A stretch of DNA of 64,000 nucleotides from Podarcis gaigeae (lineage: Eukaryota). Under the pieces are notes generated by a model. That model was not told the DNA's origin and ran no database searches. It saw only the letters and a program-made list of their open reading frames with translations. Of the stretch, positions 25,263 to 58,450 are shown piece after piece. Position numbers and translations under genes: made by a program. The number at the start of each line of letters is the position of its first letter. Positions within the stretch are counted from its first letter, which is position 1. The DNA lies in assembly GCA_964106915.2 (NCBI GenBank), contig OZ066923.1; one strand, written 5' to 3'.

Positions 25263-25869
25263 CTGTAGACAAGCAAGAGAAAAGGAATGTTTGGCAAATA
25301 GAAGGCTCTTAAACGCTTTTTAGTTGTTTCAAACAGAGTTTCAAGTGTCCCAGTTGGCAGTACAATCTAGCATTAACCAGCGCTTTCAGAGAACATTAAC
25401 CAACAGGCAGAAAACAGCTGCTTATGAGAACTGACAATATGGTATTATAAAGCCTCTTCCTTTTTGGGATAGGTGAACTGCACTCACACTTGTCGTACAA
25501 AATAAACCTGAATCATCCCTGTTCATCTACCATGCATCAAAATCCATGGCAAAAGAAGCGTCTGGTCACATGACAGCAGCAGTCAAGAATCAATTCCACA
25601 GCAGCGTTCCTAGAATAGGAACTTTGGGGGGGGGGGGTAAGGTTCTTTTTCGGTTTCAATTCCACAGCACTATTATTCAAATAGGAACTTTTAGGGTTCT
25701 TAAAATCTAGGTCTGTTAAACTTGAGTTCTGCAATTACTGCCAGTGCTAGCTGTGGGAGAGAACTGTGAGTACGTACGTACATTACTATTCAGCCAATGG
25801 CTTGGTTCACACACCACATTAAACCATAGCTTAAAATAAACTATGGTTTAACTCACAATACTGCTTTTC

Positions 25870-27782
25870 CAGGGGCGCCGACTTATAAAAAATATTGGGG
25901 GGGCCCATACCGGGGTCCTGCCCCGGGACGTTTTCTAAATTTTAGATGAAAATTAGTGAGTTTTAAAGTTTTTTTAAAGTATTTTAGAGTCATATGATCA
26001 ACATTAGAACCCCGAAAACTCGACTCTCTATAACTCCACACTCCGGGAAACTCGACAAGCCTGAAACACTTTTTGGCTTTGAAAAAAGAAACAAAACATA
26101 AACAAGCACGGTATTTTCGTAAAAAGCTAATTTAATTTACAGTAACAATTATGCTTATAGACTATTACAGAGCAGTGAATATATAGCTCTGAAAAGACTG
26201 AAATGATATTTAAATAAATCCTAAACTATCATTAAAAGAATAAAACATAAAATATTGCTGTCGCACAGTAATAGCACTTTGATTAATAAGTGAAATAGCT
26301 AATTTAAGCTTACTTTGAATAAGGCTGAGGGTTCATTAAATAAAAATAATATCTCAAAGTTAATGCTTTAATACAGTTAATAAAGTTAATACAGTATGCC
26401 TAATACTGTATGTAAATACTGTAATACTGTATGTAAATAACGGGCTTTAATTGGGTCTTACACCCTAAAAATATTTAAGTATTTGAAAATAACTAATACA
26501 GTACTATAGTAATATAGAAATACAGTACTAAACTAGTACTAATATTTCAAAACTGAAAAATTAACATTCTGTATGTATTTAATTCTCTATTTTATAAAGA
26601 TTTTTAATATCTGACAGTGAGTTTGGAGTAGCCCAATGCAAAAATCCTGAGGATCCATGTGGATCCGTGCTTTGTAACCATGTTTTTGCACCACTGTGAC
26701 CCTAGGCAACAGTGGGTGCGTGATTTTTTTGGTGCAAGATGTAGCCATGGACATGCTATGTGATCTGATGGTGAATCTGGGGTGACCCAATGCAAAAATC
26801 CTGAGGATCCATGTGGATCCGTGCTTTGTAACCACGTTTTTGCACCATTGTGGCCCCAGGCCACAGTGGGTGCGTGATTTTTTTAGTGCAGGCTGTAGCC
26901 ATGGACATGCTATGTTATCTGATGGTGAATTTGGGGTGACCCAGTGCAAAGATCCTGTGGATCCATGCTTTGTAACCACGTTTTTGCACCATTGCAGCCC
27001 CAGGCAACAGTGGGTGCGTGATTTTTTTGGTACGGACTGTAGCCATGGACATGTAATGTGATCTGATGGTGAATTTGGAGTGACCCAATGCAAAAATCCT
27101 GAGGATCCATGTGGATCCGTGCTTTGTCACCACGTTTTAAATGGGGAGGGAAGGAAAAACACAGAAGGAACAAGAAGCACAAGAGGGGTGTGTGGAGAAG
27201 CAGCTGGCTAAGAATGCAGGGGAGGAGTTTAACGGGGTGGGGGGAGGAAAGGAAGGCAAAAGTCCCCCCCCAAGCCAGCCCTCTCTCTCTCTCTCCCACC
27301 TGCGAGTCCCTAGAGCACGGAGAGGAGGAGGTGGTGGGCTGGAGCCTGCAGGCAGTGTGACTAGGAAAGAGTTAGAAGGAAGGACTCGATCCTTTCCTTA
27401 ACCCTCTGCTTGCCAGGAGGGCAGGGGATTCCCTGCTCTTTGTTGAGTTTGAGCAACAGAAGCGGGTGGGCAGTAAGACCCTGAGGCAGAATGCAGGAAA
27501 GCAGCAGCTTCCGCCTTCCCTCCGCCCGACCGCCCGATCTTATTTTTGCCTGATTTTTGCCTATTTTTGCCCCTGCGCTCCGGCGAGTCAGCTCCAGGGA
27601 CCACACATTCGCTCAATAACACGCACAGACATTTCCCCTTACTTTTTAGGAGAAAAAATCTGCGTGTTATAGAGCGAAATTTACGGTAATAATTTTCTTA
27701 AATTATTGGGGGGGCAGAGCCCCCCAAACGAATTTTTGAGGGGGCTCGGGCCCCCTCAGGCCCCATGGAGTCGGCGCCTATG
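25870..27782 (+). mobile_element. Non-autonomous hAT element, copy 1 (1913 bp)
   Basis: TIR caggggcgccgact / agtcggcgcctatg; perfect 8-bp TSD tgcttttc; no transposase ORF. Confidence 0.93.
26631..27137. repeat. Internal tandem array, about 154-bp unit, about 3.3 units
   Basis: ggatccatgtggatcc recurs at 26651, 26805, about 26955 (10-bp deletion) and 27103. Confidence 0.92.
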
Positions 27783-40636: not shown

Positions 40637-42439
40637 CATAGGCGCCGACTCCATGGGGCCTGAGGGGGCCCGAGCCCCCTCAAAAATTCGTTTGGGGGGG
40701 CAGAGCCCCCCCAATAATTTAAGAAAATTATTACCGTAAATTTCGCTCTATAACACACAGATTTTTTCTCCTAAAAAGTAAGGGGAAATGTCTGTGCGTG
40801 TTATTGAGCGAATGTGTGGTCCCTGGAGCTGACTCGCCGGAGCACAGGGGCAAAAATAGGCAAAAATCAGGCAAAAATAAGATCTGGCGGTCGGGCGGAG
40901 GGAAGGCGGAAGCTGCTGCTTTCCTGCATTCTGCCTCAGGGTCTTACTGCCCACCCGCTTCTGTTTCGTTTGCTCAAACTCAACAAAAAGCAGGGAATCC
41001 CCTGCCCTCCTGGCAAGCAGAGGGTTAAGGAAAGGATCAAGTCCTTCCTTCTAATTCTTTCCTAGTCACACTGCGTGCAGGCTCCAGCCCACCACCTCCT
41101 CCTCTCCGTGCTCTAGGGACTCGCAGGTGGGAGAGAGAGAGAGAGGGCTGGCTTGGGGGGGGACTTTTGCCTTCCTTTCCTCCCCCCCACCCCGTTAAAC
41201 TCCTCCCCTGCATTCTTAGCCAGCTGCTTCTCCGCACACCCCTCTTGTGCTTCTTGTCCCTTCTGTGTTTTTCCTTCCCTCCCCATTTAAAACGTGGTAA
41301 CAAAGCACGGATCCACATGGATCCTCAGGATTTTTGCATTGGGTCACCCCAAATTCACCATCAGATCACATAGCATGTCCATGGCTACATCTTGCACCAA
41401 AAAAATCACGCACCCACTGTTGCCTAGGGTCACAGTGGTGCAAAAACGTGGTTACAAAGCATGGATCCATATGGATCCTCAGGATCTTTGCATTGGGTCA
41501 CCCCAAATTCACCATCAGATCACATAGCATGTCCATGGCTACATCTTGCACCAAAAAAATCACGCACCCACTGTTGCCTAGGGTCATAGTGGTGCAAAAA
41601 CGTGGTTACAAAGCATGGATCCACATGGATCCTCAGGATTTTTGCATTGGGCTACTCCAAACTCACTGTCAGATATTAAAAATCTTTATAAAATAGAGAA
41701 TTAAATACATACAGAATGTTAAATTTTCAGTTTTGAAATATTAGTACTAGTTTAGTACTGTATTTCTATATTACTATAGTACTGTATTAGTTATTTTCAA
41801 ATACTTAAATATTTTTAGGGTGTAAGACCCAATTAAAGCCCGTTATTTACATACAGTATTACAGTATTTACATACAGTATTAGGCATACTGTATTAACTT
41901 TATTAACTGTATTAAAGCATTAACTTTGAGATATTATATTTATTTAATGAACCCTCAGCCTTATTCAAATGAACCCTAACCCTAACCCTTATTCAAAGTA
42001 AGCTTAAATTAGCTATTTCACTTATTAATCAAAGTGCTATTACTGTGCGACAGCAATATTTTATGTTTTATTCTTTTAATGATAGTTTAGGATTTATTTA
42101 AATATCATTTCAGTCTTTTCAGAGCTATATATTCACTGCTCTGTAATAGTCTATAAGCATAATTGTTACTGTAAATTAAATTAGCTTTTTACGAAAATAC
42201 CGTGCGTGTTTTTGTTTTGTTTCTTTTTTCAAAGCCAAAAAGTGTTTCAGGCTTGTCGAGTTTCCCGGAGTGTGGAGTTATAGAGTCGAGTTTTCGGGGT
42301 TCTAATGTTGATCATATGACTCTAAAATACTTTTAAAAAACTTTAAAACTCACTAATTTTCATCTAAAATTTAGAAAACTTCCCGGGGCAGGACCCCGGT
42401 ATGGGCCCCCCCAATATTTTTTGTAAGTCGGCGCCCCTG
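40637..42439 (-). mobile_element. Non-autonomous hAT element, copy 2 (1803 bp), inverted relative to copy 1
   Basis: TIR cataggcgccgact / agtcggcgcccctg; perfect 8-bp TSD gtctaacc; end-to-end reverse complement of 25870-27782. Confidence 0.93.
41290..41652. repeat. Internal tandem array, 154-bp unit, about 2.3 units
   Basis: ggatcca(c/t)atggatcc at about 41309, 41463 and 41617. Confidence 0.92.
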
Positions 42440-42594
42440 GTCTAACCTACTGTACAATAGTAAATTCGACATTTGTTGCTCCACATATTTTTTGCCTCTG
42501 ACTCTGGCCACCACTGGCACATGTCATCCGTAAGGTTGCTGAAACAAGAATTCATCCATTGGGCTGAGAAAGATTCCCCACCCATGCCTTACAA

Positions 42595-54708: not shown

Positions 54709-57516
54709 CTGTAAGTGACATATGTCTGCATGTAAAATGAGGGTATATACATTGTTGGGTAAAAAGGTTTTTGTTTTTCACAAAGGGCTTTCCTGCACAA
54801 TTGTCCTCATATGAAGAATTAAACATTTAAGTAAGATTCCTACATTGTTCCCATTCTTTGTAGAAATGATCTCACAGGAGCCTTCTCGTGTATGGCACAT
54901 ATGCAGCAATTTAAGAGCAGCAACATGACTTTAAACTACAGGCGTTTGCTGCTGCTAAGGCAGCTATTTATGGAGCCAAACAAATGTAGCAGACAACTTA
55001 ACTCCCCATCTCAAAATTCCAGCCCAGGCTGCAAATGAAAGACAACTATATGTATATCAGCATAAAAGCCTCTCTCTTTTTTCTTCCCCATTCCCCTTCT
55101 CTAAATCCCTAGATTAACATGATCATAACCCGCCTGCCTCTTTCAGCGCTGGGTGAGAAACAGAAATCTACTGCTACAGAAACCTACCCTTCCTCCAATA
55201 GTGCTGGGCCGAATGAAAGATGCTCTTAATTTTCAAACCAGCAAACAAGAGCAGTTAGGGAAATATGAGTTTGGTAGCTAAGGACCATTGCTTAAATACA
55301 CACACGGCTGTGTTTGTTATCAAGAAAATGTAGCAAGGTGGCTCTTTGCAGTTAATATTGCATCTGTAAATTGCCTCCTGTACAGTAATAAAGACAATTA
55401 GTGAACGAAAAACCCAGAGAAAAGGCTTGCTGTAGAATTATTAAGGAATGAATGATAGCCGGCGTCTTTCGTGATAATGAATAATGCACAGATAAATATG
55501 ACTGCTTGTACCCTGTTTATATGAAAACTGTTATCCCTGATAGAGTAACTGACAGTTTATCATAGCCTGCTTATATTGCATTCACTGCATTCCACTTTCA
55601 TTCCTTAATCTCCTCGCCCGCCCCGCCCCCCGCAAGATATCTGTGCAAACTCCTCTCCAGTTATTTTGCCACTTCACTTTCCAAATTCAGACACTGTGGC
55701 TTTGCTTCATTTGAAGTAGCAGGAAAGGGAACAGAGAGAAATGGTCTGAAGACACATCGAGGAGCAGGATACAAACTGCAAGAGCAGATGGCACAGTTAG
55801 TACTTCCTTAGTTGGCATCTTCTAGACTGTTTAAGTAGCAAAAAAAGGAATTGGATTGTGACACGGCTTGAGAAGTCACGAGGGTCAAGTCTTTGGAAGC
55901 GTGAACACTGAGGCACGTTAGTGACAAATCACAGTAGATAGATAGAACCTTGCATTCACTACTATAGTCCCACCCACCCCAGTTCAGTCCATAGCACATA
56001 TGCTGACACAAGCACTTCCTGTAACAGGACCTTTCCGCACAATCATTTTTTCAAGCAATAAAAGTGCAGCCGTTACTTGTCTGTTGCATAGGAGGCCAGA
56101 CATTTTCTTTCAAGTTTTTTCTCCTGCTGCAGTGCCTTAGGATTTCAACCGCTGCCTGGAACATGACTACATGCCACAGGCTACTACTGTTCTTGCCTGC
56201 AGTGAGTGGCATCAGCCAGCCATTCCATTCATTGAAGTTCATTTTAAAAGGAACTAGATGGATGAATGGTTTGACTCAAGTTTCTTATGATCAAATCTAA
56301 AATCCTATCTACCAAATGCAATGCACTACTCTCATCCACTTTCTTGCCATCGCTGCTCTCTTTAAACATTCATTTGCTATCTGTCCTGCTTCCTTTTATC
56401 ACGCCAACCTTGCTCTAGCTACCATTTCCCTCTATGCTTGCAACTTTTCCATTTGTGAAGCAAACTTCACCTTCAAATTCCTCCTCAAAATGCAGTTATT
56501 TCCGCTATTTAATCCTCTGCTACTCGTTTTTAGCAAACCAAATCCGCTTTCTCTTTGCCCTGTCCATCATATCTTGGCACCAAGGCATTTCGGTTTTCCG
56601 GCCATATTCCCTTCAACACTCATGTGCACCTGTGATAGCAGCACTTGCCAACTGCTTTTGGGTACAGAGGCACCTCCCACACCTGCAATCACCCAATATT
56701 CCCACAAGAAAGTTTCCTATCCATTTACCGAGCCATTTCCAAGGTTGTCATATTAACTTACAAAGCCCTGAACACCTTAGGCCCAGGGTCAGCCTTGGGG
56801 ATCACCTGAACCCTTATATCCCAGCTCGATCACAAAGATCATCTGCAGGAGCATCGCTGGTCATTCCTCGAGTTGCCAAGGCTCATTGGACAACAATAAG
56901 AAACCAAGGATTCAGCTACACAGGTGCAAATAAAACACTTTAAATCTGTTGTAAAGCGCAATATACAAATGTGACACTACATGGCGACAGTGAGCTATGC
57001 AAAATTCAATTTATTTTTCAAAATTTAAGAAAAAAGCATTTTCACAACTTTTTCTTATATGTGTGTAGATTCTACCCAAGTCTTTAGTGTCCTCAGCCTT
57101 GTCCTGTGGAATATTCTGCCAACAGAGTTTTATCAGGTGCATTCTGTGCCAAATTTTAAATGCCTGCTGGAAACATTTCTGTTCCACCAGGGCTATGCAG
57201 GTAATTAAGAACAACACATCTTCCCAGAATAGTTGATGTCTGCATTTAACTTTCAATAAGTTAATTTTTTATCGTATGGTTTTTATTGTTGGTTTTATGT
57301 ACTTTTGCTGTAAACAGCTCTGATTTTTTTCTGAAGTAGTAGTACATAAATTGTTAAACAAACAAGCAATAGGAATAGACATATTGGCACCTCTTGAAAG
57401 TATCTCCCCTTAGGTTGGCCACTCATTGCCAATTGTCTCTGAGTCCTTTGTTCCTGCACTCTTAATGAATGCAGAGTTCTGGGAGAAGGGGGGTCAGAAA
57501 TACTTTCCAGTGATAA

Positions 57517-58125
57517 TGTGATGGCCTGGGATTCGGACTCGGATGCTGAACCTGAGGAATCCCAGCCTGCACAGGATTTCCTGCCTCCAGAACCAGCAGA
57601 GCCGGGGCTGGGGCTTGAGCCTGAAGGGTCCTCACCTGTGCTGGATCCTCAGGTGCAGGCACCAGCTGAGTCTATTCTGGCTCCTGAGATGATGGAGGAC
57701 CCATTGCCTGCAGGTGCTCCACTCTCAGCCCCGTCAGGGGAAGCTGAGGTTGCCTCTGGGTCCAGTAACCCTCCAGCCTCTCCTGAGCTGCAGAGGCTCA
57801 GGGCAGAGAGGCGGAGGGAACTAAGTTCCCGCAAGAGGATTGCTCGCCTCCAGGCCAGGAGAGGTGAGTCACCTGTGGACCGGGGCCGCCCTATGCCTCG
57901 GGGTAGATAAAAGCCAGCCAGCCCCAGTCCCAAGTTGCGGGAGCAACATTGTTGGTAGCCAGTTCCTGCCTGCACCCTGTCCTGCTCTCCTGCCGGAGCT
58001 CCTGACCTCACCCGACTCCCTGCCCTGCACCCAGCTTCAACTTTGATGGACTGCCTCCATACTGCACCTTCGACCTCGGACTGGACTCGGACCTCGCCTC
58101 ACAGTTAACCCACGGGACCAGCACA
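57517..58125 (+). mobile_element. Solo LTR (Gypsy-like), 609 bp
   Basis: TG...CA ends with imperfect inverted termini tgtgatggcc / gaccagcaca; perfect 5-bp TSD gataa; TATA-like gataaaag at 57906. Confidence 0.85.
57521..57910 (+). CDS. LTR U3 ORF, 129 aa, acidic Pro-rich N-terminus and Arg-rich C-terminus (hypothetical)
   Basis: ATG 4 nt inside the LTR; uninterrupted to a TAA inside the TATA-like box; strongly bipartite composition. Confidence 0.45.
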   Translation: MAWDSDSDAEPEESQPAQDFLPPEPAEPGLGLEPEGSSPVLDPQVQAPAESILAPEMMEDPLPAGAPLSAPSGEAEVASGSSNPPASPELQRLRAERRRELSSRKRIARLQARRGESPVDRGRPMPRGR

Positions 58126-58450
58126 GATAACATGTCAGCTGGCTGCTCTGCCTCTGTCTCCCCCGCCCTTCTTCTAACACTTCCCAACTCTTCTGTTTGT
58201 CTGTCTCTGAGTCATGACCTTCCTCAAACCCCTCAAGTAATCAATGCTGCATTCCTCTTCTCCTGCAGGGTCAGGAGAATGGGGTGGGTGATCTCCACCA
58301 TCCCTCTTCCATCTCATCCCCTTGAGTCCAGTCTCTGATAACATCCCTTCTTCACACATGAAAAGAGAGAGAGGATGATGTCTGTTTTCACTTTGGAATA
58401 AACTCCCTTATATATGAACTCAGGAAACTGGTTTGTTCCAACTGGAGTTA

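Follow-up and report, generated by a model that had tools for sequence, protein, structure and literature searches.

A reading frame in a lizard solo LTR is very probably the integrase C-terminal tail of a chromovirus and may bear a nucleosome-binding motif

A solo LTR in the 64-kb stretch of DNA analysed here (the window) contains a 129-codon open reading frame (ORF) that is very probably the C-terminal tail of an integrase, overlapping the 3' LTR of its parent element. In related Podarcis elements the homologous sequence follows the chromodomain of Pol and includes RRSARL, an HMGN-type motif. We consider it reasonably probable that the solo LTR preserves the end of a pol gene that passes its chromodomain and runs on into the 3' LTR, with RRSARL likely sitting on the nucleosome acidic patch.

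The LTR and its reading frame

The element lies on the + strand at 57517..58125, is 609 bp long with TGTG..CACA termini, and is flanked by direct GATAA repeats at 57512..57516 and 58126..58130. Both ends and the 5-bp target-site duplication reported in the first-pass annotation were thus verified. The 5' end reads TGTGATGG and the 3' end CCAGCACA, with seven of the eight terminal bases inverted, and the GC content of the LTR is 62% against 42% for the window. Four public runs, two DNA and two RNA, were compared with the locus. In DNA run X1, 90 contigs departed from it at 57517 and 76 + 40 at 58125/58126, and the contig flanks beyond both ends were mixed (agreement 0.32-0.35); the loose ends of these many contigs independently confirm the LTR ends. 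Joints in the public DNA runs also placed the LTR-flanking DNA, without the element, at other loci. The LTR family is large and dispersed, with 6924 and 9850 matching contig records in the two DNA runs, and parts of the stretch are present in seven organisms. No RNA source was on record in that listing, which carries no information on expression. The window holds a single copy of the LTR, and neither an internal domain nor another LTR lies close to it. Its protein relatives are Podarcis Ty3/Gypsy products, and it is through these that we assign it to a lacertid Ty3/Gypsy chromovirus family, in agreement with the earlier call of a squamate Gypsy solo LTR. An older repeat surrounds the LTR (57426-57516 and 58126-58237), and uninterrupted copies of that repeat occur at other loci. 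Two ATG ORFs, of 146 and 169 codons, overlap each other upstream of the LTR at 56316-56943.

The frame within the LTR is open already from base 2 (57518..57910, + strand), with one Val codon ahead of the ATG at 57521, and it closes at a TAA (57908-57910) inside a TATA-like GATAAAA at 57906..57912, a putative promoter element. This agrees with the ORF as first delimited, from its ATG to the TATA-like box, and the bipartite character first read from its translation was also evident. Residues 1-82 (57521..57766) include 18 Asp or Glu and 15 Pro and are devoid of Lys and Arg; the remaining 47 residues, 83-129, include 15 Lys or Arg. The first part is an acidic, Pro/Glu-rich linker that varies between lineages and, from its composition, is likely disordered. 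Codons 83-112 (57767..57856) form a conserved, gap-free basic block, SNP..LQRLRAERRREL..RL.A, in which codons 105-110 (57833..57850) occupy the position of the HMGN-type motif; the window copy reads KRIARL there and the family RRSARL. A splice-donor-like AGGTGAGT follows at 57862..57869, and because most other copies are without it, it is not a family feature. Neither AATAAA nor ATTAAA occurs anywhere in the LTR.

In a single copy an ORF of this size is not significant by itself, since 474 of 5000 dinucleotide shuffles contained an ATG ORF of at least 129 codons (181 of 5000 on the + strand alone). A 149-codon stop-free stretch on the opposite strand is mostly a mirror of the ORF. The caution, raised at first reading, that such a frame might be a chance occurrence is therefore sound for one copy, but it does not extend to the family. 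There the ORF is a common feature, with a homologous tail in Podarcis Pol proteins across three lineages, as the proposal of a family trait had anticipated.

The end of Pol in related elements

When proteins of near ORF length were searched, none of 71 candidates matched, and Pfam returned one insignificant match only for the ORF (E 0.42). A search among longer proteins gave seven Podarcis muralis matches, all of them retrotransposon products, and the named protein relatives of the ORF came from Podarcis only, which makes a lacertid lizard the probable host. No relatives were found among metagenome and viral contigs. The ESM Atlas returned no usable match for the ORF and, for the end of P0020, only chromodomain clusters under 0.9. 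One candidate relative, P0026, was dropped as an unrelated Cys-rich repeat protein.

The Pol protein P0003, a gene prediction from a sister lineage to that of the window LTR, has by Pfam the order protease, RT, RNase H, integrase, SH3 and chromodomain, and beyond the chromodomain its C-terminus continues, after a Gly/Arg stretch, as a homologue of the window ORF. Its cluster has 15 members, six of which reach the chromodomain; in five of the six the frame runs on into the tail, and P0018 ends just short of the junction. In P0024, which represents a third lineage, the chromodomain is likewise followed in frame by the tail, after which the prediction diverges. At the protein level, and in gene predictions, in-frame continuation is thus seen in six of seven Podarcis chromodomain proteins, representing three lineages. 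The distance from the chromodomain WKGY to the Val-Met pair was 49 residues in all four lizard proteins measured (47 in the frog protein P0030), and the start of the window LTR, T-GTG-ATG, is in the same Val-Met frame as these Pol proteins. The ATG is then an internal Met codon, imposed by the LTR terminus TGTGATG. For the window's own lineage, we infer Pol read-through from the sister lineages.

P0001, to which the window ORF is most closely related (80% identity over 65% of the ORF), is joined to Gag, and through it the window lineage can be tied to the Gag family of the related elements, which has Retrotrans_gag/DUF4939/CCHC domains by Pfam. Seven predictions, P0001 among them, fuse the 5' LTR ORF to Gag and leave the ORF at seven different points. 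A conserved LTR-to-Gag splice was accordingly rejected (7 predictions, 7 different junctions), and these Gag-joined predictions behave, as expected, in the way that prediction artefacts would. The chromodomain-tail junction, in contrast, is shared, so that its contiguity is likely real.

The chromodomain belongs to group I, as that group is defined in passages of PMC3350952, with the three cage aromatics Y, W and Y all present when read by eye; the nearest solved chromodomains are those of HP1/CBX. The nearest non-lizard Pol matches were frog elements (Leptobrachium P0029, P0030), whose predictions read 110-235 residues beyond the presumed LTR start and are without RRSxR. The retrieval gave 12 further Pol proteins (two frog, the rest fungal or unlabelled), none with RRSxR in its tail.

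The RRSARL motif and the competing readings

The resemblance of KRIARL to RRSARL, first suggested from the window copy, proved to be a better description of the family than of that copy. RRSARL is present in seven of the eight database loci that cover the motif position, with P0023 and P0028 counted as one locus and P0025 and P0027 omitted, as LTR fragments that miss the motif; the exception, P0022, reads RRSVR, after which its sequence diverges. At both deviating codons the sequence leans toward RRSARL in ~99% of the contig depth of either DNA run, and almost every read from the two RNA runs does likewise. Because the family departs from KRIARL in this direction, the window copy is a drifted family member that presumably changed at two motif residues after insertion. 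The HMGN-like core RRSAR(L), with its three arginines, is accordingly a property of the family and not of the window copy. Pfam HMG14/17 gave no match at E up to 10 for the ORF and up to 1 for Pol, and the marks of the HMGN protein family itself, an HMG14/17 domain in a small free protein, were not found here.

With the window copy set aside, the alignment of four lineages had 21 invariant columns out of 30 in the basic block and 16 out of 50 in the linker (Fisher p 0.0012, for block boundaries set after the alignment was viewed and for lineages that are related). Between P0003 and P0021, identities were 32/33 in the block, 52/63 in the acidic part, 45/48 in the chromodomain and 156/160 in RT; for this pair alone, the comparison of block with acidic part gave p 0.053. 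The lineages differ in length by whole codons, within the linker and not in the block, a pattern biased by a retrieval that yields in-frame proteins only. All five common indel rows within the LTR fell after the stop codon and none in the ORF (4 places, p 0.016), with one further row outside the LTR and, besides these, one single-contig joint inside the ORF. The ORF variants among the rows listed, at least 21, comprised 15 non-synonymous and 6 synonymous changes; because these rows are among the 40 listed of 203 and many are private to the window copy, they are uninformative on selection, and give no sign by which codon-level selection is either shown or excluded. Related-DNA contig depth, which is not copy number, was 4.5 and 6.4 times greater over the ORF than over the 3' part of the LTR in the two DNA runs. 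This is the reverse of the usual variability, U3 being normally the more variable part of an LTR according to passages of PMC3601003. Because the TATA-like box follows the basic block at a distance of 50-140 bp, promoter constraint could conserve the block as DNA.

We consider it most likely that the full-length RNA is translated through integrase and onward across the 3' U3, the tail being made solely as part of Pol. The Gly/Arg linker would correspond to the polypurine tract; no polypurine-tract flank was found among the loose ends listed at the left LTR end. The product would consist of the integrase core, SH3, the group I chromodomain, an acidic tether of ~70-80 residues and the basic block with RRSARL, and the last 110-130 residues of Pol would lie past the presumed polypurine tract. 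Reverse transcription would duplicate the tail into both LTRs, and recombination would leave a solo LTR with it, in which the frame would be a passenger upstream of the promoter.

A chromatin-tether role for the tail is plausible. RRSAR-type motifs are described, in passages of PMC12487698, as arginine anchors to the H2A-H2B acidic patch in HMGN and Dsup, and an RRSAR-type motif of Dot5 also binds the acidic patch (passages of PMC13347269). Whether RRSARL anchors the integrase to the nucleosome in the same manner seems to us evenly balanced. The group I chromodomain of MAGGY binds H3K9me2/3 (passages of PMC3350952). Somewhat more tentatively, and at a little below an even chance, the integrase could be a two-handed nucleosome reader: its HP1-like chromodomain would read methyl-H3K9, and RRSARL, flexibly tethered by the acidic linker as a U3-encoded acidic-patch anchor, would bind H2A-H2B, leaving an HMGN-mimic frame in the solo LTRs. 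Such a two-point hold would keep the integration complex on its target nucleosome. Structure prediction is reported to fail on the HMGN2-nucleosome complex (passages of PMC12487698).

The basic block might instead simply bind DNA or serve as a nuclear localisation signal at the end of the same Pol tail, its likeness to RRSARL being incidental, and we regard this as unlikely. Arg-rich ends are frequent among the other tails retrieved. Shuffling the last 50 residues of P0003 gave RRSxR in 4791 of 200000 trials, and in the literature searched RRSxR appeared for plant CMT2 only, where it occurs as repeats (passages of bioRxiv 2024.07.11.603080). The exact hexamer RRSARL, on the other hand, arose in just 54 of 200000 shuffles of those 50 residues, and in 13 of 200000 when the residues of the whole P0003 tail were shuffled. 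It is present in four lineages in which its neighbours differ (AP, SP or TC before it, K or Q after). Less probable again, in our view, is a functionless read-through, in which a pol stop was lost, the GC richness of U3 keeps the frame open, and the block was kept as promoter DNA. A 129-codon stop-free stretch was found in 1941 of 5000 shuffles, the frog elements also extend with no common motif, and the ORF variants among those listed are 15 non-synonymous to 6 synonymous. Weighing against it are the in-frame, linker-only length differences, subject to the retrieval bias noted above, the absence of common indels from the ORF when counted by places, and a known exact motif inside a conserved block.

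The remaining reading, that expression of the ORF starts, mainly or additionally, at its own ATG, we think very improbable. It would be made either from a spliced or read-through transcript, as an accessory nuclear protein, or as a product spliced to Gag; the first-pass annotation had suggested an accessory nuclear protein with a transactivator or chromatin-tether architecture, and a search for a spliced or subgenomic RNA over the 3' U3. The ATG is present across all lineages, the Gag fusions could be taken as products of this kind, and the P. muralis RefSeq model P0023/P0028 (XP_077791897/XP_077791896) starts with the LTR ORF, keeps the motif intact, and then continues into unrelated sequence. 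LTR reads also occur in both RNA runs (267 and 275 reads, under a different species label), and those at least 99% identical to the window LTR numbered 3 in X21 and none in X23. However, the ATG belongs to the LTR terminus, the Gag fusions have no exit point in common, only a minority of copies have the donor-like site, and among those listed there was no RNA joint and no start or end peak inside the LTR in these two shallow runs from another species. The separate protein was not supported, the sequence being the in-frame end of Pol in six of the seven chromodomain proteins; at this depth the reads lend a subgenomic RNA no support but weigh little against it. First mates in X23 were mostly on the + strand, which would mean antisense RNA under common stranded protocols. 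The RefSeq model suggests occasional exonisation of the LTR. Fragments of the LTR ORF also lie inside CEP63/Deup1-like and family 3 GPCR predictions (P0025, P0027), where they are probably annotation artefacts.

Known systems and other elements in the window

Vertebrate Sushi-like chromoviruses with a group I chromodomain share with the lizard elements the Gag domains, the PR-RT-RH-IN-SH3-chromodomain order, a TG..CA LTR and a 5-bp target-site duplication. They differ in that the lizard Pol tail fills the presumptive U3 and ends in RRSARL, a motif that is absent from the frog relatives retrieved. A layout in which Pol enters the LTR is already known, since in plant CRM group A elements the coding sequence reaches over into the 3' LTR and has a targeting motif there; some Reina elements (Bingo1-4, 7) likewise have an ORF extension into the LTR (passages of PMC3059260 and PMC3605345). 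According to these passages the CR motif of CRM replaces the chromodomain, whereas the lizard motif is added to an intact one, and we liken the two by layout alone. What differs in the lizard family is that a vertebrate element combines an intact chromodomain with an exact HMGN-type motif placed after it. In the top listings of the literature searched, which covers neither subscription papers nor Repbase/Dfam entries, there was no report of a retrotransposon integrase with an HMGN-type motif, and none of this lizard family.

The MMTV sag and lentiviral nef genes are separate U3 genes on spliced RNA. They have in common with the lizard ORF that U3 is coding, but the lizard ORF would be the end of pol, and an ORF that fills U3 in a solo LTR can thus be of this origin and not an accessory gene.

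In comparison with HMGN, Dsup and Dot5, the lizard RRSARL(K/Q)A matches 7/8 residues of RRSARLSA and keeps the three essential arginines described in passages of PMC12487698 and PMC13347269. It differs from them in being a putative binder, in being carried on an integrase, and in standing after the acidic region and not before it. Foamy virus Gag CBS, KSHV LANA and HCMV IE1 are likewise short arginine-anchor tethers, and the foamy virus Gag tether steers integration sites (passages of PMC9040877); these viral tethers are borne on Gag or nuclear antigens, and are neither LTR-encoded nor on integrase. If the lizard motif binds, a retrotransposon integrase would join the short list of HMGN, Dsup and Dot5, and two-point nucleosome tethering by an integrase would be open to a simple peptide-level test. 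If the two-handed reading is true, each solo LTR would spread an ATG-initiated HMGN-mimic frame that host transcripts could capture. Lizard LTRs of this family also seed predicted exons in annotations.

Elsewhere in the window, two copies of a 1.9-kb element lie in opposite orientation at 25869-27769 and 40637-42440 and are 86-99% alike by segment. The element has short terminal inverted repeats and internal 154-bp tandem repeats, with an 8-bp duplication at the first copy, and it looks like a non-autonomous hAT-type DNA transposon.
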